This document shows positions 2,196 to 55,639 of a stretch of 64,000 nt of DNA, piece after piece. Under the pieces are notes generated by a model, which saw only the letters and a program-made list of their open reading frames with translations, had not been told where the DNA came from and searched no databases. Numbering within the stretch: the stretch's first letter is position 1; each line of letters starts with the position of its first letter. The position numbers were made by a program, and so were the translations under genes. The stretch spans positions 399,528,001 through 399,592,000 of the forward strand of contig OZ024741.1 in the NCBI GenBank assembly GCA_964016885.1, written 5' to 3'. The DNA comes from Eledone cirrhosa. Taxonomy: Eukaryota.

Positions 2196-5100
2196 TTATA
2201 TTGACAGAATCTTCCTTAGTATATGGGCAGTTCCCATTAGTACTATCTTTTGTATTTCTCCTATACGCGGGTTTCCTGGGATTTGCGATATGTAATCATT
2301 AGACCCCTTAGGTATCATTCCCAGAGCGCCTACAACCACTGGTATTGTTTTAGTTCTCAATTTCCACATTTTTCCAATTTCTATATCCAGGTCCTTATAC
2401 TTGCTCAATTTTTCAAATGTTTTTATAGATACATCCTTGTCTATTGGAACAGACATATCAATTAGCAGGCATACCCTCTTTTTAAAGTCCTTCAATATTA
2501 TATCAGGTCTATTTGCATCTATTTTTCGGTCTGTTTGGATGCTAAAGTTCCACAAGATTGAGATGTGATCTTTTTCAAGTATGGGAGGTGGTTGATCCTC
2601 CCACCAATTCTTTTGATGGGGCAGGTCAAAATGCTTACACATTATCCAATGTATGTATTGTGCAGCTCTGTCATGCCTGTTTAGGTATTCGGTTGGAGCT
2701 ATAGGACTGCACATTGAAATTATATGGTCAATGGTCTGTGGTTGTTTTTTGCATACACGGCATAATGGGCTGCACCCATTTTTTATTATGTTGGCTTGGT
2801 AATTTTTTGTTGGCAGACACTGATCTTGTGCTGATATAATCAGTCCTTCAGTCTCCGATTTCAGTCCAGAGGATGCCAACCACTGATTTTTTGTTGGCAG
2901 ACACTGATCTTGTGCTGATATAATCAGTCCTTCAGTCTCCGATTTCAGTCCAGAGGATGCCAACCACTGATGGGTTAAATTTTGTCAACATCAGGATTGT
3001 TAGCTCGCTCTGGGTATTTTCCATACAGAGGCTTTTCTTGCCATTTCTTAGCCAGTTTCTGTAGCAGTTCTTTCTTTGCAGTTACTTTTACCTGCTTTGC
3101 TTTTTCTGTGTTTTCCATTTCAGCAGTAAATGGGACTTCTGAAATTTGTAGTCCATTACTGTATCTTTGTGCATCTTTTGTAATGGAATATGATCTTTTG
3201 ATGCTTTCGTGTTTCAAAACGAGTTTGATCATCCAATCATGTGATTCCCTTAGATATGTAGATAATCCAATTGTTGCAGTTTTCAACGCAATGTCTAACT
3301 GGATTAACCCACGTCCTCCTTCTTTCCTAGGGAGATATATTCTATCTATATCTGCCTTAGGGTGATGCATTCTGTGCATGGTTAAGAATTTTCGAATTTT
3401 TGTATCGAGCCTACGGATCTCTGTGCTTGACCAGTTGATGACATTGTAACTGTAGGTTACTACTGGTATGGCAAGCGTGTTTATGGCATCGATCCTATTC
3501 CTTGCATTCAATTCCGTTCTTAAGATTGCTCTTACTCTGCGGTAACATTCCTTCCTTATCCTTTCCCTCATTGTCGAGTGCTTGATTCCGTCTCCTTCAC
3601 AAACACCTAGATATTTGTAAGTTTCTCTTATCACGTTCCCCCGATCAAGATTAATGTCTGAACTCTTCAGCAGCTTTCCTCTGGTGAACGTTGCTTTGGC
3701 GCATTTATCTAGTCCAAACTCCATTTTAATGTCTTCACTGAACTGCTCCACAGTGGATAATAGCCCTTGCAATTGTTCATCATTTTTTGCAAATAGTTTC
3801 AGGTCATCCATGTAGAACAGGTGATTAATGGTTTTGTCATAGACTTTATATCCATGTTTTGTTTCATTGAGCATTTTACTTAATGGTATAAGTGCGATGC
3901 AGAATAAAAGCGGTGATAAAGAGTCACCCTGAAAAATTCCACAATTAATATTAACTTCTCCAGCTTCCAGTGATTTTGTTTCACTATTCAAAAGGAGTGT
4001 CGTTTTCCATGTCTCCTGACAACGGGGAATATTTTGAAAATCTCTAAACATTTTTCAATCCAACTGTGTGGCAAACTATCGAATGCTTTTTTATAATCTA
4101 TCCAAGCAATCGATAGATTTTTGCGTCTATTATGACAATCTTCCAGTATCATTTTGTTAACCAAAAGCTGATCCTTACAGCCATATGAGCCTCGTTTACA
4201 CCCTTTCTGCTCAATGGGAAATAGGTCATTTGTTATCAGGTGGTCATATGTGTATTCAGTTAGGACTGATGTTAAAATTTTATACATTGTGGTCAAGCAA
4301 GTTATCGGTCTGTAATTTTTGGGATTGTTTGTCTCATCATTCTTCGGAAGCAGGAATGTAATGCCGTTAACTAGCCATGATGGTATCTTTTCTGGCTCCT
4401 TAACTATTTCATTGTAAAGTTGGGCTAACAGCTCATGAGACTCTGTGAAGGCATTTATCCAAAAGTTTTGTATTTTGTGTTTTCCTGGGGATTTCCATTT
4501 GCTGGTTTTTCTTAGAGCCAAGCGCAACTGTTCAACTGTTATATTTTCCCATATTTGTTCCTCAAGGTGAGCTGTATCTTTCATTTGTCTGTCTATCCAT
4601 GGGGCATGTATGTTATGAAATTTTTCTTCGGCCCAGATCTTTTCCCAGAATTCTTGCACTTCCTCCTTGGGTGGTATTGATTTAGCAGTTATTGTTGACT
4701 TACCAATTTTTCTGTAGAATGTTTCTTTGGTTGTTTTTGAACATATTATTGTCCTTATAGAATCTAGATCGTTTTTCAAAGCGCCTTATACGAGCAACTT
4801 TGGCCGACACTTTTTGCTTGATTATTTCTATCAGCATGTCTATGTCACATGTTGATTTTATACTGTACTTTTTTTTCAATTTTCTAAGTTTAGTTTGTTT
4901 AACATGTTCACCTACTTTATAGTTTGTTAAAATTTCTATGTCAGATCGGAGAAGGTTTATTTGGCGATTGATGTTCTCTTGCCAAGTAGATTTCTTGTGG
5001 GAATTCCTTTGTTTTTTCATCTTCACTCCACATAAGTGAGTGGTGACTTTAGCCGATGCATAATAGAGATAATTTAAATCAGTAATGTTTAGTTTGTTTG

Positions 5101-5893
5101 TGATGATAATGTTTTTGAGAATTATGTTAGTCTTGTGTATTATCTTTTGGTTCTGTTTGGAGTTCTGGATCTTAGGGAGGGTGTCTCGTTGCCCCATGTC
5201 AGATTCTTTCATTTTCATCCATTCGATCATAATTTCATCCTTCAAGTTGGCAAGTTCATTCTCATTCATTTCTTTATCATTTACGATCTCATTATTTTCA
5301 TTTGGAGTTTCATCCTGAGCATGCACTCCCTGCACTTTTTCGATTCTTTCTTTAATTTGTTCTGTTGCCAGTGATTCCGCCCCAACCCTGGGATTCGAAG
5401 TGTTACAGTTTACCTCGTTTTCACTGACACATCTTTCATTTTCCCTTCGCTGACTTTGTGCCAATAGCTTGATCTGATCAATTTCTATATCAGTTAGTAA
5501 CTTTTTTCTTACAATATTTCTTCGTATATTGGCTAGTTTGTTACTGTCAATATAGCCTCTGTTTTCGGGATGTTTCTTTTTCCAGTTGATATATGTCTGT
5601 TCTGTATTCGATGTATTTGATGGGTAGTACATGGCAGTGTAGAAAGCCCCAAGGACTTCTTTATTATCTTCCCTTGACCATTTTTCTCTCTTTTTCTTTG
5701 GATTTCTTGGTGGTGAGCATGGAGGGCCAACAGTAGGAGTATTCCGGTTATGGGAGGTCTCCAGTTCCGAAGTGATGGGAAGGTTTGAACCATTAGCTGA
5801 TTTTTCGACCCCAGTCTGGTTCCTCTCTGAGGGACGCGGCCCTTTTTTACCCGGGTGACGGCCGATCCGGTATGAGATTTTATCATTAGACAT
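2196..5893 (-). pseudogene. RT-RLE polyprotein of copy A1, broken into four ORF pieces
   Basis: ORFs 4700-5893, 3988-4779, 2975-4051 and 2196-2963 are colinear parts of one RT/CCHC/PD-(D/E)xK protein. Confidence 0.9.
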
Positions 5894-5904
5894 TTACTTT
5901 ATTT

Positions 5905-6053
5905 TGTCGCGTTTTATCCTTATCCGCCAAGGGGTAATCATTTCGTGTTACCACTTCTAGAACGAGTGTCAACCAAGACTAGAGGGGTCGTTCTCCCCTA
6001 GAGACACGGCTATTCCCCGCCGGCCGCCATCCCGGTATTTCTTGGTCACGGGG
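5905..6053 (-). ncRNA. Structured multi-pseudoknot 5' UTR motif of family A (function unknown)
   Basis: Stems CCCCG/CGGGG, CCGG/CCGG, AGGGG/CCCCT and GTC/GAC; loop pairings AGAACGA/TCGTTCT and GACCAA/TTGGTT; second copy at 9385-9533. Confidence 0.6.
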
Positions 6054-6531: not shown

Positions 6532-9500
6532 AGCTGCATTTATCTTGCTTTATGTTCATACGAGTTATCACCAAATCACAACCAGTGACCTTAAGAGACA
6601 ACAAGGTCCGCCATGTTCAAGAAAGAACATACATACTCACACATGCATCTTTAGGTGTTTAGACTTGTGATGTATTTATATTGACAGAATCTTCCTTAGT
6701 ATATGGGCAGTTCCCATTAGTACTATCTTTTGTATTTCTCCTATACGCGGGTATCCTGGGATTTGCGATAAGTAATCATTAGACCCCTTAGGTATCATTC
6801 CAAGAGCGCCTACAACCACTGGTATTGTTTTAGTTCTCAATTTCCACATTTTTCCAAATTCTATCTCCAGGTCCTTATACTTGCTCAATTTTTCAAATGT
6901 TTTCATAGATACATTCTTGTCTATTGGAACGGACATATCAATTAGCAGGCATACCCTCTTTTTAAAGTCCTTCAATATTATATCAGGTCTATTTGCATCT
7001 ATTTTTCGGTCTGTTTGGATGCTAAAGTTCCACAAGATTGAGATGTGATCTTTTTCAAGTATGGGAGGTGGTTGATGCTCCCACCAATTCTTTTGATGGG
7101 GCAGGTCAAAATGCTTAAACATTATCCAATGTATGTATTGTGCAGCTCTGTAATGCCTGTTTAGGTATTCGGTTGGAGCTATAGGACTGCAAATTGAAAT
7201 TATATGTTCAATGGTCTCTGGTTGTTTTTTACATACACGGCATAATGGGCTGCATTCATTTTTTATTATGTTGGCTTGGTAATTTTTTGTTGGCAGACAC
7301 TGATCTTGTGCTGATATAATCAGTCCTTCAGTCTCCGATTTCAGTCCAGAGGATGCCAACCACTGATGGGTTAAAGTTTTGTCAACATCAGGATTGTTAG
7401 CTCGTTCTGGGTATTTTCCATACAGAGGCTTTTCTTGCCATTTCTTAGCCAGTTTCTGTAGCAGTTCTTTCTTTGCAGTTACTTTTACCTGCTTTGCTTT
7501 TTCTGTGTTTTCCATTTCAGCAGTAAATGGGACTTCTGAAATTTGTAGTCCATTACTGTATCTTTGTGCATCTTTTGTAATGGAGTATGATCTTTTGATG
7601 CTTTCTATCCAAGCAATCGATAGATTTTTGTGTCTATTATGACAATCTTCCAGTATCATTTTGTTAACCAAAAGCTGATCCTTACAGCCATATGAGCCTC
7701 GTTTACACCCTTTCTGCTCAATGGGAAATAGGTCATTTGTTATCAGGTGGTCATATGTATATTCAGTTAGGACTGATGTTAAAATTTTATACATTGTGGT
7801 CAAGCAAGTTATCGGTCTGTAATTTTTGGGATTGTTTGTCTCATCATTCTTCGGAAGCAGGAATGTAATGCCGTTAACTAGCCATGATGGTATCTTTTCT
7901 GGCTCCTTAACCATTTCATTGTAAAGTTGGGCTAACAGCTCATGAGACTCTGTGAAGGCATTTATCCAAAAATTTGGTACTTTGTCTTTTCCTGGGGATT
8001 TCCATTTGCTGGTTTTTCTTAGAGCCAAACGCAACTGTTCAACTGTTATATTTTCCCATATTTGTTCCTCAAGGTGAGCTGTATCTTTCATTTGTCTGTC
8101 TATCCATGGGGCATGTATATTATGAACTTTTTCTTCGGCCCAGATCTTTTCCCAGAATTCTTGCACTTCCTCCTTGGGTGGTATTGATTTAACAGTTATT
8201 GTTGACTTACCCATTTTTCTGTAGAAGTTTCTTTGGTTGTTTTTGAACATATTATTGTTCTTATAGAATCTAGATCGTTTTTCAAAGCGCCTTATACGAG
8301 CAGCTTTGGCCGACACTTTTTGCTTGATTATTTCTATCATCATGTCTATGTCACATGTTGATTTTATATTGTACTTTATTTTCAATTTTCTAAGTTTAGT
8401 TTGTTTAACAAATTTCTATGTCAGATCGGAGAAGGTTTATTTGGCGATTGATGTTCTCTTGCCAAGTAGATTTCTTGTGGGAATTCCTTTGTTTTTTCAT
8501 CTTCACTCCACATAAGTGAGTGGTGACTTTAGCCGATGCATAATAGAGATGATTTAAATCAGTAATGTTTAGTTTGTTTGTGATGATAATGTTTTTGAGA
8601 ATTATGTTAGTCTTATGTATTATCTTTTGGTTCTGTTTGGAGTTCTGGATCTTAGGGAGGGTGTCTCGTTCCCCCATGTCAGATTCTTTCATTTTCATCC
8701 ATTCGATCATAATTTCATCCTTCAAGTTGGCAAGTTCATTCTCATTCATTTCTTTATCATTTACGATCTCATTGTTTTCATTTTGAGTTTCATCTTGAGC
8801 ATGCACTCCCTCCACTTTTTCGATCCTTTCTTTAATTTGTTCTGTTGTCAGTGATTCCGTCCCAACCCTGGGATTCGAAGTGTTACAATTTACCTCGTTT
8901 TCACTGACACTTGTTTCATTTTCCCTTCGCTGAGTTTGTGCTAATAGCTTGATCTGATCAATTTCTATATCAGTTAGTAACTTTTTTTTTACAATATTTC
9001 TTCGTATATTGGCTAGTTTGTTACTGTCAATATAGCCTCTGTTTTCGGGATGTTTCTTTTTCCAGTTGATATATGTCTGTTCTGTATTCGATGTATTTGA
9101 TGGGTAGTACATGGCAGTGTAGAAAGCCTCAAGGACTTCTTTATTATCTTCCCTTGACCTTTTTTCTCTCTTTTTCTTTGGATTTCTTGGTGGTGAGCAT
9201 GGAGGGCCAACAGTAGGAGTATTCCGGTTATGGGAGGTCTCCAGCTCCGAAGTGATGGGAAGGTTTGAACCATTAGCTGATTTTTCGACCCCAGTCTGGT
9301 TCCTCTCTGAGGGATGCGGCCCTTTTTTACCCGGGTGACGGCCGATCCGGTATGAGATTTTATCATTAGACATTTACTTTATTTTGTCGCGTTTTATTCT
9401 TATCCGCCAAGGGGTAATCATTTCGTGTTACCACTTCTAGGACGAGTGTCAACCAAGACTAGAGGGGTCGTCTTCCCCTAGAGACACGGCTATTCCCCGC

Positions 9501-9845
9501 CGGCCGCCATCCCGGTATTTCTTGGTCACGGGGTTTTCTTTTTTGTTGTTTTTTAAATTGTTATTATCATGAGTGGTTCCTTAATGTGAGCATTGCGTGG
9601 CTTAAGAATGAAATTATTAATAATATAATATACTTTTTGCTGGAGTTGCCTGTTATTGTTGTTGGCTATGTCGATGGTAGTGCTGGGGCTTTTTCTATTG
9701 TTGGTGGGGAAGGGGGGAGCTAGCAGTGCCATAGTCGTTGACGTGTGGCCGGTGGCCGGGTCACTAAGTCAATCTATTTATATCTTTTGCTAGCCTCTCC
9801 CCTGTCTAGTGATACCGCCACCTTCCCCCTTCTTAAGTTAACAGA
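6530..9845 (-). mobile_element. R4/Dong-type LINE family A, copy A2, lacking the RT core
   Basis: Highly similar to A1; ORF 6676-8385 joins IAWI directly to ESIKRSY, deleting about 0.9 kb including YMDD; (TTA)n flanks. Confidence 0.92.
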
Positions 9846-15799: not shown

Positions 15800-15836
<37 letters not shown>

Positions 15837-15845
15837 GTTATTATT

Positions 15846-18800
15846 CCTTGAATCTCAGTCATTGATGTTGGTTAATGGAAAGTCCGTTGGAATGAATATC
15901 AAGCCACTACCTGCAGCCTCAGATATTCAAGACGTATCGGAGGGTTCTTGCTGTTCCCAGCAAGCATGCCTTTTGAAGCGTTCCAAAAAGCGTGAAGGGG
16001 CCGATTTTCTTTAACCATCCCTGGAAACTTGTGGAGATAGTCCCCAGTGCGCCTATGACAATTGGGATCACTTTGACTTCATGGCATTTCCAAATCCTTT
16101 TTACCTCCCACTTTAAGTCCTGGTATCGGTTAACTTTCTCCCTCTCCTTCTCTTGCTCTCTCGTGTCGAATGGGCAGGCCACATCCACAATCAGACACGA
16201 TCTTTTTTCTTTGTCCACAACCACCAGGTCAGGTCTATTGTGTTCCAGTTTCTTGTCTGTCTGTATCCTAAAATCCCACAGCACCTTCACCTGATCGTTT
16301 TCTAACACCGACTCTGGCCTATGCTCATACCATTTCTCAGAATGTGGTAAATTGGTAAATTGTTTACTTTGCACAGGTGCCAGTGGATCACCCTGCCCAT
16401 CACATCATGTCTCCAGCCCTTATAGTGGGTCTGGGCTAGGTGTTTACACTCGGATACAATGTGAGCCACAGTCTCCTCTCTCTCTCCACAGATCCTGCAC
16501 AGTGGGCTAGCCTCCTCCTTGTAAATATGGTGTTTCAACCACTTCGTTTTGAGGGCCTGCTCCTGCGCAGCCATTAACATTCCTTCTGTAGCCTTTTTGA
16601 GGTCTCCTCTTTTCAACCAGTTCCATGTCTGTGGATCTCTAAATTCAGTTTTCTCAAAGAAGGTACTATGAAGGGATTTTCCCTGAAGGCTGCTCTTTCT
16701 CCTTGATGTTATTTCCTCCTTGGACATCCCCTGGCTTATTGTCCCCTCCTTCAGTACAGTTCTGAGTATTGGCTCCTTACTATCAGTCACGTATTTGTAT
16801 AGGTTGTTTTTATCCATCTGAACACAGTCCTCTATGCTGATAAGACCTCTTCCACCCTCATATCTCCTTAGGTAGAGTCTATCGACATCACTCCTCTTGT
16901 GGAACATGTTGTAGATAGTCAATAGCTTCCTAGTCTTCCTATCCATTTCTTTTTGTTCAGCAACATTCCATCTCAGAATTCCCATACTGTACCTAATAAT
17001 AGACACAGCTCGGGAATTTACTGCGCTTATGGCATTTCTGCTGTTCAGATGTGACTTCAATACGCTCCTTATTCTCCTAATGTATTCAGTTCTTAACAAT
17101 TCCTTCATTTTTTTGTTCTTTATGCCATCAGCCTCCAGAACGCCCAAATACTTGTATCCTTCCTCAGAGTCAATTTCCTTTATCATCCCACCTGTTGGTA
17201 TCTGGATTCCGTTACTTCTGCTCAACCTACCCCTCCTCGTCACAATGACTCCACACTTACTAATACCAAACTACATACATATATCACTGCTGAAAATACG
17301 GACAGTATCAACAAGCACATCCAACTCCTTCTCACTCTTCCCGAAGAGCTTAAGATCGTCCATGAAGAGGAGGTGACTGATGGTAAGCTCTCCCTTTCCC
17401 AACTTGTAACCTGCTCTCACTTTTCGCAGCATAATGGTCAAGGGCATCAGGGCAAGGACAAACAACAGAGGGGACAGTCTATCTCACTGGAAGATACCTC
17501 TCTTGATCTTCACGCTTCCCAAGGATTCTCCAGTTGATGTCAACTCTGTCTCCCAGGACCCCATACTCCTGCCCAGCAACTGTCTGATGTTATCTGCCAC
17601 CTTGAAGATCTCCAGGCTTTTGGTGATCCAAGAATGAGGCACCATGTCAAATGCCTTTCTGTAGTCTATCCATCCCATGGCAAGATCAGTGTGTCTCCTC
17701 CTGCAATTCCCCATTACCATCTTATCAATAAGTAACTGGTCCTTTGTACCACGTGACTTCTTTCGGCATCCTTTCTGTTCGTCCGGTAACAAGTTGTTTG
17801 TGTGGAGGTGATGGTAGATTTCCTCAGACACAATGCTCGTCAACAGTTTCCACATTACGGTCAGACATGTGATAGGTCTATAGTTGGTAACATCATTACC
17901 CTTGATTCGGTCTTTCATTATCAGAACTGTGGTACCTATTGTCAACCACTCTGGCACCTCACCCGACACCAAGCAGTCATTGAACATGGCTGTCAGTTTC
18001 GGGTGGAGGGATGTTAAATTTTTAATCCAATACCCCTGCACACCATCTGGGCCTGGTGATTTCCAGTTGGTTAGTTTTTTGGCCTGCCCCTTAAGAGTTT
18101 CAACTGTGATACTCAAATCAGTTTGTTGGTGTGCCTGCTCAGCGATCTCCCTCTGTACTGTCTCAATCCACCCTGCCTGGTCATTATGTCTAACATCCTG
18201 CTCCCATATTCCTCTCCAGAATGTTTTAGTTTGTTCCGCCTCAGGGATCAAGTCGTTGCTTCTTTCTTTCCCCTCAAGCTGTCCAAACAGCATCTTCTGG
18301 TTGTTGTCGAACATGCGGTTCTGTTTATACTGACTGACTCTGTACTCGTATCGCCTGATTTTTGCACTCTTTGCTACAATGCGTTGCTTCAGTTCCTCTA
18401 TGATAATATTTAGCTTTTTCCTCCTAGTTTAGTACTTTATTTCCAGTCTATTTTTAGTGCCTATGTTTTTTAGTGTCCCATTCAGTAGTGACTCAAGCTT
18501 TCCTATGTCATTTCTCATTTCCTTGATTTGACCACTCAGTCGTTTCTTCCACCAAGGCTCTGCTCTTTCTTGTCTGTTGTTTCCTCTCGCTTTTATACCA
18601 AGTAGTTTCCTCACCGTATTTGCTGTTGCTTTGAGGATATTGTTGCACTGGTGAAGGCTCCTCGCCTCAAGGTATGGTATGACTTTGTTTACCTTAGCTG
18701 TTGTTTCTTTTAACTTTTTCCTGTCTACAAATCTTAGGTTCATAGGTCTCCCACTATCATTGTTCAATTCATCTACCACTAAATTTGGGATGTCAACCGA

Positions 18801-20501
18801 ATCTTGTCCTAGCCCGTCAGCATTCATCTCCTCAGTGGCCGTATCTCTGTTCCAGGTATTATTTATCTCAGTATTCAGATCATTGTCTGCTTCGGGTGGT
18901 TCCTCCGTTCTCTCGACATCTTCACCTTCATTTCCCACTGGCTCGTTTGTCTGGCATACTACACCCTCCATCTCCAAGCTATTCTCTCTGCTCAGTTCCT
19001 CCAGTTCCAGCTCGCTTATCCAACCATTAGTTCTTATTACCCGAGCCTGCCCGGCCAATTTTTGTTCATCTAATTTAAATAGACCAATCTCGTTCCAGAT
19101 GTTATGCATCCGTCTCCTATAGCCCCTCTCCTTGGGGTTACTTTTCAGGTAACATTGCATAACAGTTCTATTCAATTCTTTCGTCCAGTTGGTTCTGGCC
19201 CCTTTCCTTCTTCTTCTTCCTCCAACACCAGCAGTATTTGGTTGACAGTCAGGTTCCTGCTACTGAGCCAGGGAGCACCTGTTGGGTGAGAGTCTCTCAC
19301 ATGACGTTCTAGTCTCCATTTCACCGTTATTCGAACTGTTTAGGTTCGATATTTAAACACTCTTATCGAGGATTGGCGAATGTATGGTTACATAGCCATC
19401 TGTGGATTCACCGTCTCCGGTGGTTGCGCCGCTCCACTTGGCTCTTGTGTGGCATTATCACCACGCTGTAGACGAACACAAATAAACAAACAAACACACA
19501 GGCAGAAAAAATCCCAAAAATGGATAAGCATAAGTTTCATTGTAATGTAGTGTTCGAATGTCTGACTTAGTTTTTCCCTTCTCTTCTCTGTCCGTCCGCT
19601 TGTTTCTCTCTTCATTCTTATTTTCTTTACGTTTTTTTTTGTTTTGTTTTTTGTTTTTGTTTTTCTCTGTTTGTTTTTCTCGTTTTTTGCTGTTGTTGCT
19701 GTGCTGCTTTGGTTTTGATGTTTGTTTTTTCTTTTTTCTTTTGAGTCTATCTATATATTTTGATGCCTTCCTCTTTTTTAGTAGGAATTCTATAATGTGG
19801 TGGCAGCAACTAGCAGGAAGCAATGGGAGATAATAGCGGCGGTAGCGATACTGAGACAGTGGTGGTGGTGATGTCGATACCGAGGCAGTGGTGGTGGTGA
19901 TGTGGTCGTATTACTGTAGTGATGGTGTTGTAGCGGTGGTAGCAATGAAGGAGTAGTGGCGGCGGTGATGGGATAGTGGTAGTAATGATGGCAGTAGTGA
20001 TGGTGTTGTAGCGGTGGTAGCAATGATGGACTGACGTCCGTTCGGTGAATCTATGGGGTTAGTCGCGTATATGTGTTGACCTAAATTCCCTTAATGTTGG
20101 GATTAAACATTTTGTTAAGACTTGGGATAATAATAATAGTATTTATTATTATGTTGAGATTGGTTGTGGTGGTGGTGAAATTGCCGTTTTCTGGCTGTTG
20201 TGTTTAGTGTACACAGAGAGGTGATGGGGTAGGTGGTGTATCTAGTTTCTGGTGTTGGTGAGATTGGTGTTGTTTGGCTGTTCTATATAGTGTAGACAGA
20301 GGAGGGGGGGGTTCTTCTTCCATTTATAGCCATTTTCTTTTTTGAATATACAATGTACAATACAAAGTTGAATATTTGAATATTTGAGCCTTATAACAAT
20401 ATATTTTGGGTCCGAATTTTTGGGGGGCTCAAGCCGGATGCTTTACGTAGCATTTGTACTAAGAGTTGTTATTTCACAAATGATTTAAATATGTTAAAAA
20501 T

Positions 20502-21889: not shown

Positions 21890-21986
<97 letters not shown>

Positions 21987-21988
<2 letters not shown>

Positions 21989-22027
21989 TTTTGATAAGTC
22001 CCAATAAGGACGAAACGTTCGTAAATC
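21987..22027 (+). ncRNA. Degenerate minimal type I hammerhead (Penelope-like remnant)
   Basis: gatt-TTGATAA-gtcc caataa ggac-GAAAC gttc GTA-aatc; stems intact but the CUGAUGA box is mutated. Confidence 0.6.
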
Positions 22028-22431
22028 AATATTTAATGTAAAAAACATATTTGGTAATTACTTTAATAAATAATTTGCTTCAGGCGTGTTTATTATTTTT
22101 AACACAATAGGATTTTGTACATCTGCTTGCTTGAAAAATCTTTCAAAGAAGTATGAAACAGTCTTTTGTATTGTTTATTATAATATTTTGAGCTGTTTTA
22201 ACTTCTCCACCAACCTCTTTCCAATTTATTATATTGTTTTTGTAAAAAATGATATTTTTTCATATATATATACATATATATATATATATTAGGTATAGGA
22301 TTATCCAAGATGTAGTGATGGTTAATTACTACACTGGATATGGTTGACATACGGTAAGAGGTTACTCTACGAGTTATGGAAGAATTGTTCAAGAAACTTA
22401 GTTCCTGATCCTTCAGTATTCCGGAGTGTAT

Positions 22432-24115: not shown

Positions 24116-24498
24116 TTGTAGCTCTGAAATAGCAATATATATATGGATGTAAATATAATGTATTTTGCAATACACTTTATGCTATATATATATTGCTATT
24201 TCAGAGCTACAATTCTAATTTTTAATTTCTGCCTGACCAACAACCGCTCTGCATAATCAGCTCCTGATTATTTACTAGATTTCTATAAGAATATAACATC
24301 ATTAATCTCAGCAGACGGGCGGGGTAGTTGGCCTTGATAAGCTTCAACAAAAGCGAAACATGTCATGTCGGCTTATCTCCTCCTGTTTGCTGAGATCGAA
24401 GTGAGTGAATTTGTCACTACTTTAAAACAATAGCTTACGGTCTTCAAAATGCTTTTAATTAAGCATAAAGTGTATTGCAAAATACATTATATTTACAT

Positions 24499-24822: not shown

Positions 24823-25244
24823 TATATATATATATATACACTGAAGCAACGTGTTGAAGTGACATTAACTTTCTATAGAATATGGCAGATGACAGGTTGT
24901 GTTAGGTGAGAGAAGTTCAAAGTTGGATTGACTGATCGACTGCAATAATTTGTACTCTTTTCTGATTTCTTTTTTTTTCTCGAATCAATTATATTTCTTA
25001 TTTTAAGTAATTAAAACGCAATTTGCTTGTTAAAAATTGATAATTTACGAATTAATTATGTCGTTTAATAAGCTAAAGACAACAAATCTCTATACTAAAT
25101 GTTATAGAGTTCGATGTCCTGATGTAAATATTGGTTTGTGGAGATTTTGAAGAATTATAGATTGTTCTGTCTGTTTTTTTTTTGTTTTTCTATATTTTTA
25201 CAAATTTAATATAATTTCGAATGTATGTATGTATGTATGTTATT

Positions 25245-25840
25245 GGTAACATGTATCCCAGTACAACCTGTCTCATGGTCAGGTCGTTGGCGACTAAACT
25301 GGCAACTCCACCAAGGTTTCTTGGTGAGGAGGGTGACTTTGGACATCCTGCAGGACTAAAAACAAAACCTGGCAAAGGGCAAAGGAGCTCTTAAGAGTCA
25401 ATGGCCATCCAAAATCACCGGGAGAGATGACCCCTTAGCCTTTGTCAAGGCAGAATTCTAGGAGAAGGAAAACTCTGATAGAACACCTGCAACCCTGATG
25501 GTATCCAATGATGTTGACTTGTTCTTCTTTTTGGTAAATATCATCTTGGTTAAGAGAGTGGGACTGGCTTTGTGCAGTGCCTTTGCTCACTATAAAAGCT
25601 TCACGTCACAGGCATTGCTTTATATCTGGAGATCTCTCTGTATTTGTCGTCACATGGTACCATGGGCCTAGCACTATGTGTCAATAATTGTCACAAGTGT
25701 AGTGTTTGTACCAGAGTTTTCAAGTCGCTGGCTGGACTAAAATGTCACACTCGTTTAGCGCATCAGTAGGGGTTCTCCTACATGGATATAAAGTAGTGGC
25801 CGTACTCGAAAACGAATTGGCAGCCACCATGTATGTATGT
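25245..25840 (+). mobile_element. Bipartite non-autonomous RTE derivative (5' UTR fused to 3' end)
   Basis: 25420-25620 aligns with the RTE 5' UTR at 26765-26987; 25690-25770 encodes CSVCTRVFKSLAGLKCH, like the last RTE zinc finger; ends TGGCCGTACTCGAAAACGA..CATGTATG. Confidence 0.75.
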
Positions 25841-26712: not shown

Positions 26713-29700
26713 GCGCGGGGACATAGAAATAATCGGGCTGGATGCCCGATCGCGCAGTTAAACCACTGGGAGTGAAGAACCCCTAACCCTTGTCAGGGCA
26801 TTCTTCTAGGAGAAGGCATCTCAGGAAACTGGGTTAACTCCGACATAAAACCTGCGGCTCAGTAGTTACCGATGATGTTGATCTTTTCTTCTTTTCGGGT
26901 TATAGCTACTGTCGCTCAGAGAGTGGGATTGGCTCAGTGCACGGTCTTTCCTCACTTTAAAAATATTCGTCACGCACAGGCATTGCACGAGTGCATTAAT
27001 AATTATTAATAGTGTACTATTATTATTATTATTATTATTACTATTATTTTTTTTTATTTATTTTATTTTTTTTTTTTTCCAATTCAATGATGTTCCAGAA
27101 CAATATAAAAGAGATAATTGGCAATTTAGGTTCTGGAACAAAAAAGATCATTGGCAATAAGGGCAGGGGCCCCAGGTTATCACAGCCTGGGCCCGCTCGT
27201 CATCGTGCCATTGTAATAGAGCCAAACAAGGCATTTAGTCTTGGCTGCTGGAACGTACGGACGCAGCTTGACAGGGATTCCTTGGGGCGTCCTGAACGAA
27301 GGACCGCTCTTGTTGCAAAGGAGCTTCGACGTTACGATCTTGACATCGTGGCTTTATCTGAGACGAGGCTAGCTGGAGATGGTCATCTTACGGAATTTTG
27401 TGGAGAATATACATTCTTCTGGAAAGGAAGAGATGAAGGAACCAGAAGAGAGGCTGGGGTAGGATTTGCTGTTAAGACTGTGCTTGTGAACAAATTAGAA
27501 GAATTCCCAGTAGGGATTAGTGAGCGTCTTATGTCCATGAGAGTTCCGCTGGACAAGGGAAGATATGCTACCCTGGTGAGTGTGTATGCTCCAACTATGA
27601 GTTCTGTCGATGAGGAAAAGATGTCCTTTTACCATGCCTTGAAAGGTGTTTTAAGAAATATCCCTCAGGCAGACAAAGTCATCGTGTTTGGTGACTTTAA
27701 TGCTAGAGTGGGTAGAGATTTTAACACATGGAATGTAATCGGAAGGCATGGGGTGGGAAAGTGTAACAGCAATGGTATGCTCCTGCTGCAGATGTGTGAG
27801 GAGCTGGATATGTGTGTTACCAACACCATGTTCCAACAAAAGAACAAATTCAAGACCACATGGATGCATCCTGCATCTAAGGAATGGCATCTTTTGGACT
27901 ACGTCCTAGTCAGGATGCGTGACAGACAGGATGTGCAGTGTGTTCGTGTTCTTCGTGGAGCTGAGTGCTGGACGGACCACCGCCTGGTACGCGCAAAAGT
28001 GAAACTAATCACTAAACGTAAAATCCGGGCTCCTGGTGTTGCCCTGCCCAAAAGATTGAATGCTGCTCGTCTTAAGGATAAAAACGTGAAGAGGACATTG
28101 GAAGAAGAGATGCAGGCTGCAGATCTTGGTGAGGATTGGCCGACCCTTAAAAAGTCGGTTTATGATGTAGGCAGGCGTGTTCTGGGATTGGCGCAGAGGA
28201 AACATCAGGACTGGTTTGATGAGAATGATGTACATATAGAAGACTTGTTGGCTGATAAGAGGCGTGCTCTGTCGCGCTACTTGACGGCAAAACCACAGAG
28301 GAGGAATACGTTGCATGAGGAACTCAGGGATGTAAAATCACGTGTTAGGCGGAGTCTTTCTCAGATGAAGGATCAGTGGTGGAGTGAGAAGGCTGGTGAG
28401 ATACAAACTGCGTCTGATTCCAATAACACAAAGCTGTTGTACAGTCTCTTGCGTGAGGTTTATGGACAGTCGTCTTCTCTTGTGACACCGCTTCGCAGCA
28501 AGGATGGCAAAGAAATTCTTCGTGACTCACAAGGAATTCTACGAAGGTGGCGAGAGCACTTTGATGATCTTTTGAATCAGCCGTCTGTCGTCAGTGAAGA
28601 TTTCCTCAATCTCATTCCAGAAAGTCCTGTGAAAGAAGCTCTCGCAGAACCTCCGACGCTTGTGGAGGTTGCAGTGGCTATTTCGAAGCTGAACAGTGGA
28701 AGATCTCCAGCTATGGATGGCATACATGCTGAGCTCCTACAATATGGTGGTGAGAGACTCCTGCAACATATTCACTCTTTGTTTGGCAGGATATGGGCTA
28801 ATGAATCCGTACCTGAGGACTGGAGAGATGCAGTAATGGTGGTCTTGTACAAGGGAAAGGGTAACAGGAACGATTGTGGGAACTACAGAGGTATATCATT
28901 GCTTTCTGTCGTAGGGAAAGTTTTATGTAGGGTGCTTCTGGACCGTCTGCTGACACACATTGCAGATTGTGTTCTTCCTGAAAGTCAATTTGGTTTTCGT
29001 GCTGGACGTGGCACTACTGATATGATCTTCTCAGCTAGACAGCTCCAGGAGAAGTGCATGGAACAAGGCTTGGATCTGTATCAGGTTTTTGTCGATCTGA
29101 CAAAAGCTTTCGATACTGTTAACAGAGATGCATTATGGAAGGTTCTCCAGAAACTCGGTTGCCCTGATAAGTTCCTTGCTTTAGTTAGGTCTTTCCATGA
29201 GGACATGAATGCTTGGGTTAATGTCGGGGGTAACATGTCGGAGCCTATCTCAGTAAAAAATGGAGTGAAGCAGGGGGATATTCCAGCACCGAACATGTTT
29301 TCCATATACTTTGCAATGGTTTTCTGTATTGCATTCAGGAATTGCGAGCATGGTGTTTACATCCGATATCGAACCTCAGGCAGCATATTTAACATCAGGC
29401 GCTTTGCTGCGAAGACAAAAGTGTTTATATCAATCATAAGAGACCTCTTGTATGCAGATGATTGCGATCTTGTAGCGCACACAGAGAGTGATATGCAGCA
29501 CATTTTGAATGCATTTTCTGACGCTTGCACTGCCCTAGGTCTGACTGTCAGTCTCAAGAAAACCGTCGTCATGTACCAATCTGCCCCTGGTAAGCAGTAC
29601 ACTGAACCAAACATCTATGTGTATAGCAAACGACTTGGAGTGGTTGATCAGTTTGTCTACCTGGGAAGCACTGTCAATCGATACAGCAACCTTGACAGTG

Positions 29701-30760
29701 AAATCTCACTTAGGATTAGGAAAGCAAGTGATGCTTTCGGAAAGCTAGAAAGGCGACTCTGGGGTCGGCGAGACATATGCAGGAGGACAAAGGTAAAGGT
29801 GTACAGGGCATGTGTGCTCTCTTGTCTTCTTTATGCCTGCGAGACCTGGGTCAGATATCGACACCACCTTAAGCAATTGGAGCGTTTCCATCAGTTGTGT
29901 CTCAGGCGGATCCATGGCGTTCACTGGAGGGACCACATCAGTGATGTCGAGATTTTGGAAAGCTCTATGTGTGACAGTATAGAAGCTCTTGTGCTTAAGC
30001 AACGACTCCGTTGGAGTGGTCACCTTGCCAGGATGAAGGATTCTAGAATACCAAAACAACTCTTTTATGGAGAGTTGGTTAAAGGAAAACGACCGCCACA
30101 TAAACCAAAAAAGAGGTATAAGGATTCCTTGAAAGCCTCTCTGAAAGACGCTAACATCTCTGCTGATACATAGGAGAATATTGCTGCTGATCGTAATAAA
30201 TGGAGAAAGACTGTATATGAGGGAAAAGTTGCCTTTGAGGCATCTCGAATCGCATACGAGAAAGTAAAGCGGGATGTGAGGAAGGGCATTGCTGTTGCAC
30301 TTCCAGACGGCGAGGGTCCTCCTATGGTGCTGACATGCAGCGTATGTGCGAGACTCTGCCTAAGCAAAGCTGGACTCGAAAGTCATCTTCGCAGTCATAA
30401 AGTAAGACCAGTGGTTGACTACCAGGCTGCTGTTGGAGATGCTACTCATCATGCTTGCCAAACATGTGGTAGAGAATGTAAATCAGCAGGAGGGCTCAAG
30501 CGACATGCAAAAGTACACAAACTCCAACCACAGCCGACTATTCCCAGTAAATGCTTTGGTTGCCGACTCTGTGCAAGACATTTTAGATCATTGGCTGGGC
30601 TAAAAAGCCACATTCGATCGCAGCGCTGTTAGTTGCTATCGTGTGTGTGTGTATGTGTAGATATGCTTATGTGTGTGCGTGTGTGTATATATATATGTAT
30701 ATGTATATTATTATTGTTGTTATTATTATTAATATTATTATTGTTATTAATGTGTGTGTA

Positions 30761-48210: not shown

Positions 48211-48466
48211 CACCACCGGATCCTGTTACCCGGAGACTTACCAATCTGCATTGCTGAGGCTTCCAAAACGACCAAAAGAAAATAAATCTTATTATTCCAC
48301 AATGCTTCAAGCAAACTTCAATACTCTCTTATATATATATATATATAAGAGAGTATTGAAGTTTGCTTGAAGCATTGTGGAATAATAAGATTTATTTTCT
48401 TTTGGTCGTTTTGGAAGCCTCAGCAATGCAGATTGGTAAGTCTCCGGGTAACAGGATCCGGTGGTG
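48211..48466. repeat. Perfect palindrome, about 120-bp arms around an (AT)n centre
   Basis: caccaccggatcc...ctctcttatata / tatataagagag...ggatccggtggtg. Confidence 0.9.
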
Positions 48467-53944: not shown

Positions 53945-55445
53945 ATAAATTTATAAATTTCTGGTTGGTTGGTTGGTTCCACAACCAGATAGTTGTTTAT
54001 ATATTGTCATAGTTCTTTCGTCACACACTCTGTGACCTCTTCAGTGACTGGGGATTCCTTTCTTTGTTTCTGTGCCTCTCCTTTGTTCTGTCCTACGCCA
54101 TTTTGTTTCTGTGTGTGTGTTGTGTGCTCAGTCTGCGCATGCGCCACATCCGGGTGTCTGTGTGTGTTTATGTTCATTTATTTATTTGTTTATTTACATG
54201 TTACTGGTTGGTTGTTTGTTCTATGTGTGTGTGTGTTTTCATTTTGTCCTTAATTGTAAGTTGTGATGTTGCTGTTCCACTCATATTTTCTATTTAATTT
54301 TGGTTGTAATTCTTTTATGTTTATTGCCTCTGTAATTTGTCTAAACATTGCGTCTTTTCTGTGTGTAGATTCTATTTTTATTTCTATGTTCTCTAATTTA
54401 CCCTTGTGTTCTATTTTAGCATGTTGGTAGAGTACAGATGATTCTTTACTATCTTTAAGGTCTCGCCAGTGTTCATTTATCCGTTCCCCAACACTACGAG
54501 CTGTCTCACCTATGTACACTATATTTTTGTCTCTACATTGTCCTTCAGTACATCTTATGCTATACACTACATTTCTAGTTTTACAGTTAATATGGGAGCT
54601 TATTTTACAGGTTATACATTTCTTATCTATACATGAGGGTCTTTGAAAAGGGTATGTCTTGCTAATAAGTGTTTTTACGGAGGTACCTGGTCTTTCTACT
54701 ATCTTAATATTGAGTTTATGTTTATTTAGGGCCCTTCTAAATTTGTAAGCTAATTCACCTCTAGGGGTTGTATCGATGAACATTACACTCTGGTATTTAT
54801 TGCTATCATACCATGAGTTTATTCTATTAGCCTTGTTCCTAGTTCTTTCTATTCTATTCCAAAATTTGCTCCTATACAAGGGGCAGGTCCCATTTATGTC
54901 ATTATTTACCATTTTTTCCCATTTGGTTCTGGCTCCTCTATACACTCTGATTTTATCTCTCTGATTGTAGCCAGAGAACTGCATACGGTGGATGAAGTGT
55001 TGTATGTGTCTCTCTAGTTCTTCGGGGTTGCACATGCGGGACACGTTTCTCATCACCCGTACCAAATCCGCAATCAGTATGTTGATTTTGGTATGGTCCG
55101 AAACGGCCGAGTTTCGGTGGATCAGATGTTTGGAAGTCATGGGTTTGGCATAATGGGAATGGAGGATTTGTATTTTGTTATTAATGGTATCTAACCAGAG
55201 CTCTGTGTCTAGTACAGGTAATCGATGGTTGGGGTGTTTACTTGGGTAGTCTATAGTAACTCTAATGCTCTGGTGGATGGAGTTAGCTATTTTCTGGATG
55301 CTTTCCATTGTGTTTTTCTCTAGTTCCTGACTGTTCTCTAGTGGGGGTGTCTTAACTACGATGTTTATATCATCAACGTAGCGGGAGTACATTATCAGGG
55401 TTAAGGGGTCTTCTAATTGTTCTTTAAGCTTAAGTTTAAGTCTAC
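53945..55445 (-). mobile_element. Penelope-like element, 5'-truncated: RT C-terminal half, linker and GIY-YIG
   Basis: YSRYVDDI, LPVLD, Cys-rich linker, VVYSIRC..VYIGETARS..RINEH, QPKLN; open frame 55445->54250. Confidence 0.9.
54006..54048 (-). ncRNA. Type I hammerhead in the Penelope 3' UTR
   Basis: gtca-CTGAAGA-g gtcaca gagtg tgtgac-GAAAG aa CTA-tgac. Confidence 0.72.
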
Positions 55446-55460
55446 TGTATATAAAAATTA

Positions 55461-55509
<49 letters not shown>

Positions 55510-55639
55510 GATAAATCTACCAAAATATACGGTAGTGTCCAATCCGTATGAAGAACTCAATATAATCCAAATATCATGAAAAGAGAAGATGTATTCAAAA
55601 GCTTTTTCGATGAAAATCACAGGAAAACAGAGTCAAGAT

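Follow-up and report, generated by a model that had tools for sequence, protein, structure and literature searches.

The proximal 5' UTR of an R4/Dong-type LINE in this 64,000-nt stretch of Eledone cirrhosa DNA (the window) contains a module of ~70 nt whose letters, compared among LINE families and contigs from other animals, covary in a way that supports two stacked H-type pseudoknots. To judge from the sequence comparison, the fold is apparently new and well supported. The module, of which this genome holds tens of thousands of copies, likely acts on the host machinery, and we propose, with a probability of roughly 40%, that it recruits the ribosome so that the downstream ORF is translated without cap scanning.

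A first-pass annotation of the window had described a multi-pseudoknot motif, and its letters, stems and both loop pairings were indeed found in copies A1, A2 and B (Table 1). The protein of family A, to which A1 and A2 belong, contains an RT (Pfam RVT_1) and a C-terminal CCHC plus PD..D..K signature, and the copies adjoin (TAA)n; family B encodes APE and RT within a single ORF. From these signatures we take family A to be R4/Dong and family B to be RTE, and their RT regions are 25% identical. A PDB search with the family A protein returned no match. The A-U to G-C swap noted earlier in A2 is present, but it marks a subfamily in which a long-helix pair is fully compensated (4 of 66 family A copies, against 56 of the main form), and the accompanying mismatch is a private further change that leaves A2 one step more decayed than this subfamily. 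What had been called a degraded fourth instance (~25335-25490) is actually an intact copy, truncated at its 5' end, that belongs to C, a non-autonomous family with a high copy number. The module stays with the ORF side of its carriers: among the best-scoring 30 copies per family, 30/30 fetched B copies ran into the ORF region and 30/30 A copies ran downstream. Genome-wide, the core pattern gave 26,654 + 15,217 matches versus 73 + 151 for the reversed control, with overlapping matches counted twice. A sister R4/Dong-type family at 15800-20500 (-) has no module and a different proximal UTR; its far leader is 77% identical to that of A over ~570 nt and its protein 42% identical. Read from its letters, this family is a natural 5'-UTR swap, and because it combines A's far leader with the lack of a module, the module is replaceable.

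Table 1. Coordinates of the module, its parts and its carriers (window positions unless a contig is named; paired strands are separated by a slash)
Feature	Positions	Strand	Remarks
Full module, copy A1	5905..6053	(-)	Proximal 5' UTR of R4/Dong-type LINE; 3' edge ~15 nt before AUG
Accessory 5' domain of A1	6015..6053	(-)	P1, P2 and strand predicted to kiss P4 loop
P1 of A1	6049-6053/6015-6019		
P2 hairpin of A1	6020-6035		
Kissing strand of A1	6042-6047		
Pseudoknot I of A1	5959..5999	(-)	P3 5995-5999/5983-5987; 7-bp loop helix 5988-5994/5959-5965
Inserted hairpin P4 of A1	5977-5979/5968-5970		Inside pseudoknot I
Pseudoknot II of A1 (predicted)	5933..5958	(-)	Hairpin P5 5952-5954/5945-5947
P5 loop pairing of A1 (predicted)	5948-5951/5934-5937		Second strand beyond A-rich linker; from family E homology and covarying loop/tail pairs
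Frameshifted ORF, copy A1	2196..5893	(-)	N-terminal region, RT, CCHC knuckle, restriction-like endonuclease signature; AUG 5891-5893
Module, copy A2	9385..9533	(-)	One private mismatch besides the A-U to G-C swap that its subfamily has in pseudoknot I
ORF, copy A2	6676..9373	(-)	Internal deletion inside RT region
Module, copy B	26713..26853	(+)	5' UTR of APE-RT (RTE-type) LINE; core 26766-26854
Upstream ORF of B	26872..27009	(+)	45 codons, between module and main ORF, in another frame than main ORF; overlaps further conserved UTR segment common to families C and D
APE + RT ORF, family B	27087..30173	(+)	
Copy of non-autonomous bipartite RTE derivative C, 5'-truncated	25240..25830 (end approximate)	(+)	Module core 25417-25489
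xrRNA-like fold, 3' remnant in window C copy	25240..25279	(+)	First helix strand and P2 lost
xrRNA-like fold, full-length family C	L063:1484-1545		Remnant in window, see previous line

Pseudoknot I is built on the stem P3 (4-5 bp); the 7-nt loop of this stem pairs with the 7 nt coming after an inserted hairpin, P4. Pseudoknot II, which lies at the 3' end of the module and is absent from the first-pass description, is predicted to consist of the hairpin P5 (3-4 bp), whose loop pairs with a short strand past an A-rich linker. For the covariation analysis, 22 representatives were drawn from 90 metagenome units; before curation, the middle four positions of the long helix were Watson-Crick at a frequency of 0.67 versus 0.43 when permuted (0/10,000). 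The alignment was then curated by removing L161, one L169 row, L195 and L258, which were truncation flanks or non-homologous, and by adding four units found by eye. Of the 461 cells in the resulting 22-unit alignment 92% were paired, and 13 of the 21 pairs, including 6 of the 7 in the long helix, had changed on both sides. None of 500 shuffles reached any of five measures and slid controls paired in 27-48%, controls that ignore relatedness in a set in which many units come from few host species and the 3' half was set by the search pattern. Because the pattern fixed the 3' half, the support for pseudoknot II comes from families A and E, in which its loop/tail pair takes three other forms, and from P5 swaps in the supplement of Kojima 2018 (PMC5786205). 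The Repbase consensus sequences in the part of that supplement available to us show, by eye, the same swaps as our units, SINEs included. Family E replaces conserved letters and keeps the pairing, and the letters of A and E are so diverged that only the structure model links the two families.

A covariance model (R1) built from the 22 metagenome units, with no window sequence in it, placed the window copies at ranks 1-4 (E 9e-13 to 1e-4; next match, E=1), with B and C matched strongly and family A weakly (23.5 and 20.7 bits). Nested-only folding gave no stability signal (z +0.95 to -1.34) and did not recover the structure; since these z values are unremarkable, the case for the fold is carried by covariation and not by folding energy. 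The loop-4 kissing pair on which the first-pass annotation had also relied (GACCA/TGGTT vs GACA/TGTC) is present, but represents a single compensatory event that separates A from B, C and D only, and in family C its 5' strand is contested by a stronger 11-bp helix (-13.1 kcal/mol). The accessory 5' domain is common to A and B and absent from the metagenome units, and the A/B similarity of this domain is modest, with 35 of 2000 shuffles scoring equally high. A tRNA origin, considered because P4 looks like a D-arm by eye, was dropped, as ARAGORN found no tRNA in eight loci and Rfam gave no tRNA match.

Taking the 3' part of family C as query, a scan of metagenome contigs yielded at least 120 stretches, 80 of them with full flanks. 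Among the matches listed, the unit measures ~71 nt and often occurs in two or three tandem copies, and arrays of up to four were seen overall. It precedes an R4-like ORF in contig L173 (N-terminus 35% identical to that of family A), RTE-like ORFs in L163, L179, L213 and L214, and an APE ORF of another type in L208, presumably CR1/L2-like from one motif. In all of these and in families A, B and E, the module was always in sense orientation and upstream of the ORF. The earlier proposal of a portable structured RNA exchanged between LINE clades is thus borne out in that the module is structured, covarying and present across clades, but repeated exchange is shown in part only: because a related R4 element of another animal (L173) has the module, a single early capture followed by inheritance fits as well. 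Three matches to the 3' motif occurred in viral contigs; the two inspected (L281 and L283) are without pseudoknot I and look like chance.

Several observations concern the architecture of these units. In annelid-like RTEs (L213:1310-1425, L164 and L214), the first unit has a larger multi-hairpin domain in place of pseudoknot I, and its closing helix terminates at the U-A step of the module. Contig L195, from a plant metagenome, has ~183-nt tandem repeats that include the module's 3' half, without pseudoknot I. Six metagenome insertions with unrelated flanks (L162, L167, L178, L200, L211 and L280) have an identical module start base and an identical 15-nt duplication, as if the RT had stalled and re-primed or as if a short master copy had spread.

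In the Eledone genome, family C is a non-autonomous element of ~620 bp at full length that joins an RTE 5' UTR to an RTE 3' end, and its downstream tag has ~25,000 exact matches. Sampling of 400 kb of the genome revealed family D, an older relative of C, and family E, an autonomous RTE with four tandem module units; a Python descriptor scan recovered five families and missed E. Each spacer after units 2-4 of family E (L111:6346-6600; L417-L471) contains a two-codon upstream ORF. A further UTR segment 3' of the module (window 26870-26990 and 25505-25620) is conserved among B, C and D. It comprises a hairpin and a possible pseudoknot pairing, and similar terminal modules lie before the ORF in L179, L267 and family E.

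As a sequence, the domain was described by Kojima 2018 (PMC5786205), who reported it in RTE LINEs of five animal groups, RTE-derived SINEs, Ingi-3_AC and R4-1_ADi; like the other papers named here, this one is cited from those portions of its text that were available to us. The published domain sits in the middle of the UTR and is duplicated in some elements, RTE-dependent SINEs and bipartite elements keep a piece of the 5' UTR, and the alignments place it in RTE elements as well as SINEs of animals ranging from cnidarians to birds. The metagenome units match, by eye, the ~70-nt domain of OegopSINE, RTE-3_BF and Ingi-3_AC in the supplement. By sequence, internal 5' UTR position, presence in RTEs and their derivatives, doubling and occasional R4 carriage, the module is the 3' half of the RTE-derived Ceph domain of that paper. 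Because RTE, R4 and Ingi carriers are already listed there, the sharing between clades is not new at the sequence level; the first-pass annotation had named a published family spanning both clades as a ground against its idea, and the Ceph domain is in part such a family. The R4-1_ADi sequence was absent from the supplement text searched, so the membership of R4-1_ADi follows the main text.

What is added here is the fold, together with the 5' domain of A and B. In the available main text of PMC5786205 the words "pseudoknot", "stem" and "IRES" occur 0 times and no structure is proposed. Our literature search found the domain and no paper giving a fold for it; subscription journals, Repbase notes and bioRxiv supplements lay outside its reach and may bear on novelty. 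Rfam 15, with which the first-pass annotation had suggested a comparison, has no model for the module: the window gave no match to it at E<=1 and short stretches (copy A1 and the L213 array) none at E<=10, and eight 3-kb loci searched at E<=0.5 gave microsatellite-type matches only, a setting that also missed the xrRNA-like fold described below. The open questions that this touches are the conservation of SINE bodies across phyla and the translation of uncapped LINE RNAs, and with a fold backed by covariation, the guess at what the domain does becomes a matter for a few compensatory-mutant experiments on 70 nt of RNA.

The module resembles several known RNA classes in part. HDV-like and twister ribozymes at the 5' ends of LINEs (R2, R4, RTE and L1Tc; Perere-3), which have been proposed to aid cap-independent translation, are like the module multi-pseudoknot RNAs of LINE 5' UTRs and common to R4 and RTE (PMC6765202, PMC8501958). 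The earlier judgment that the motif does not fit HDV, hammerhead or twister was correct, as no Rfam ribozyme matched. Twister, hammerhead, pistol and hatchet gave none at E<=10 in A1 and the L213 array and none at E<=1 in the module copies of the window. A descriptor of the HDV-like ribozyme, a P1-P2-P3/L3-P1.1-P4-J4/2 double pseudoknot that has a catalytic C, matched nowhere in the window; in L227 it matched once, ~120 nt upstream of where the module units have their first anchor. Being strict, the descriptor passed over a stretch of L254 that looks similar. Unlike HDV-like ribozymes, the module is internal, has no HDV P3/L3/J4-2 core and can sit 3' of a real HDV-like ribozyme, and it does not define the 5' end of the element, most A-D copies extending upstream through it.

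In type 6 (IGR) IRESs, the last pseudoknot lies directly before the first codon, in frame with the ORF. Families A and B share with these dicistrovirus elements up to three pseudoknots within ~150 nt, the last with an A-rich linker, but the nesting order differs and no fixed-frame ORF follows the last pseudoknot. Because the distance to the AUG varies and no frame is fixed, a dicistrovirus-type mechanism was ruled out, and an IGR-type non-AUG start was rejected since A, B, L173, L179, L208, L213 and L214 have no common frame or distance. Viral xrRNAs of classes 1-3 are, like the module, small, tandem, pseudoknotted and protein-independent, whereas the module has neither their three-way junction nor the class 3 stem-loop/L2B core and gave no Rfam match (PMC8917146, PMC12397905). 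The R2 5' pseudoknot also lies near a LINE ORF start, but it is bound to one clade and its protein, whereas the module crosses clades and has no Rfam match.

Families C and D have a second structure at their 5' end, one that, as modelled, resembles a class 1a flavivirus xrRNA at a score below the Rfam cut-off. One fold marks the start of 51/100 C copies and 15/30 D copies within its first 3 nt, a pile-up that by itself proves nothing because a common 5' end is expected of full-length copies whatever the element. The best Rfam match of this fold is Flavivirus_SLIV (RF01415), with 23.4-29.6 bits against a cut-off of 54.5 and E=0.063 in 331 bases; genome-wide, the three best RF01415 matches are C/D-type 5' ends, and at E<=10 matches also occur in 7/14 control genomes. 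The class 1a layout (features from PMC8917146) is complete, with GU before P1, a P1-P2-P3 junction, an unpaired C between P2 and P3, and a loop-to-downstream pseudoknot, which has 4 bp versus the typical 5-6. All 19 pairs are formed in five distinct rows, and covariation is not significant, with one compensatory pair and 61/500 shuffles equally high. Apart from prime-editing reviews, our literature search, judged partly from listings, found none tying xrRNAs to retrotransposons. Should the xrRNA-like 5' end stop Xrn1, it would offer promoterless LINEs a second means of setting where their 5' end lies.

The leaders of the carriers are long and rich in AUGs. Before the module there are 9-10 AUGs in the ~1,150-nt leader of family A (three copies parsed, one mis-parsed) and 19-21 in the ~1,500-nt leader of family B (three copies). 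The module lies ~990 nt (A), 1,130-1,210 nt (B) or ~200 nt (C) from the element's 5' end, inside the 5' UTR and not terminal, and 15 to ~330 nt from the main AUG in no fixed frame. The first AUG past the module is the main ORF start in A, L213, L214 and L179 and is not in B, L173, L163, L208 and E. At 5891-5896 (-), an in-frame stop lies directly before the main AUG of family A and closes a short frame begun where pseudoknot II ends, an order that might allow termination-reinitiation.

We sampled 5'-truncation points by downstream tags, which are independent of the 5' extent of the copies. In family C, 9/33 truncated copies began in a 16-nt window at the P3 start, a window chosen post hoc and with two copies sharing a flank; a fresh sample gave 5/16 (p=8e-4 vs uniform), two of these with identical low-complexity flanks. 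In one metagenome family, 8/23 truncated copies began at the junction of pseudoknots I and II, two of them with ambiguous flanks, and in another 22/32 rows began at the first G of P3. Module edges were the starting points of 0/14 truncated copies in A and 1/15 in D, and 3/30 copies of E began within 1 nt of an edge; in B, 4/30 began somewhere inside the module. The first two clusters coincide with the 3' end of a long upstream helix, and in C the 11-bp helix ends exactly there. Because families with the strongest pseudoknot show no cluster, stalling of the reverse transcriptase is the simpler reading, and the clusters suggest that the RNA was folded during copying without showing that the module cuts or blocks.

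Ribosome recruitment is ranked first because the carriers are either predicted to be uncapped or have many upstream AUGs in their leaders, and because the module is always found a short way before the ORF. Under this proposal, the RNA would fold as two pseudoknots in the cell, as the covariation and the clustering of truncation points at helix ends indicate. Its partner would be a factor of the host, not the protein that the element encodes, since the module persists, under compensatory change, in elements whose proteins differ greatly; as non-coding derivatives also retain it in this way, the partner is probably a host factor or none. That factor would be the translation machinery, because the carriers either would be uncapped, which is expected where an HDV-like ribozyme or an xrRNA-like fold forms the 5' end, or have 1-kb leaders with 9-21 upstream AUGs. 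Alu is thought to stay near ribosomes through SRP9/14, and non-coding derivatives would keep the module to sit near ribosomes making LINE protein. Uncapped LINE RNAs have been proposed to use IRES-like initiation (PMC6765202; PMC8501958). Against recruitment, the module is, in its sequence, short for an IRES, arrayed in 2-4 units and kept in non-coding elements, features that would suit a decay roadblock or an RNP signal equally well, and the sister R4 family does without it.

The stacked pseudoknots could instead be an xrRNA-like mechanical roadblock to 5'-3' exonucleases, which would save the ORF and 3' tail of an uncapped or decapped RNA, so that trimmed RNAs are copied into insertions. A compact, protein-independent fold would be useful to coding and non-coding elements alike, tandem arrangement is known from flavivirus xrRNAs (PMC8917146), a class-1a-like fold stands at the 5' end of the same elements, and 5' ends cluster at module edges in C and in the two metagenome families. 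Every such cluster, however, coincides with the 3' edge of a helix lying upstream, at which reverse transcriptase would stall, little or nothing is seen in D, A and E, where pseudoknot I is stronger, and the topology differs both from the three-way junction of classes 1-2 and from the class 3 fold (PMC12397905). We therefore regard a roadblock as unlikely, though worth serious consideration. Rather unlikely, too, is that the LINE protein recognises the module as a 5' signal and binds it in RNP assembly or completion of insertion. The R2 protein binds a 5' pseudoknot in this manner (PMC6765202), C and D are such elements as keep a 5'-UTR piece among RTE-dependent SINEs and bipartite elements (PMC5786205), and the truncation clusters at helix ends suggest an RNA folded during copying; yet proteins that are ~25% identical and have different endonucleases keep the module with compensatory change, and module-less copies insert in numbers. 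Retroviral constitutive transport elements license the export of intronless RNA. Binding of a host RNA-binding or export factor that licenses nuclear export or localisation of an intronless, possibly uncapped RNA would likewise account for cross-clade portability, tandem amplification and retention in non-coding elements, but with no motif match and an argument from distribution only, we consider it improbable.

Self-cleavage by the module, an option raised at the outset, is unlikely. A slow ribozyme of a new class would cut between pseudoknots I and II at the U-A step, which is invariant in 22/22 aligned units (the step being part of the search pattern), and the 8/23 truncated copies of one metagenome family begin <=2 nt from that A. 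In this genome, however, only ~1-2/100 C copies and 0/30 A copies start there, in most A-D copies the sequence continues past the module, and SINEs with a tRNA head retain it 3' of a promoter that cleavage would remove (PMC5786205 supplement). With a separate HDV-like ribozyme upstream in L227 and no Rfam ribozyme match, we hold this explanation to be quite improbable. Conservation at the DNA level, as a transcription-regulator site of the kind guessed at in the discussion of Kojima 2018 (PMC5786205), would suit the part of the 3' half that is strongly conserved in letters. It is highly improbable, given that changes at variable positions are matched by complementary changes across the crossing helices and that family E swaps conserved letters yet keeps the pairing.

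Beyond ribosome recruitment by the single module, LINE 5' UTRs as a whole might be assembled from exchangeable virus-like RNA machines. A flavivirus-type xrRNA or an HDV ribozyme would set an uncapped 5' end, the double pseudoknot would be a new minimal, stackable cellular IRES swapped by R4, RTE, Ingi and others, and SINEs would keep it to dock on ribosomes and capture LINE protein. We consider this wider scheme doubtful as a whole; if true, a conserved SINE body domain would for the first time have a mechanism, and an xrRNA would for the first time be known from outside viruses.

Other features of the window were also noted. Two stretches at 24315-24392 and 21973-22046 (+) gave sub-threshold Hammerhead_HH9 matches (E 8e-4 and 0.017) with recognisable cores. 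The minus strand at 54250-55632 contains an open frame of 460 codons that includes a YVDD motif and has a tail resembling GIY-YIG; it had no Pfam match at E<=0.01 and, by eye, looks like a Penelope-like element. A perfect, MITE-like palindrome with ~90-bp arms and an (AT)n centre lies at 48246-48431.
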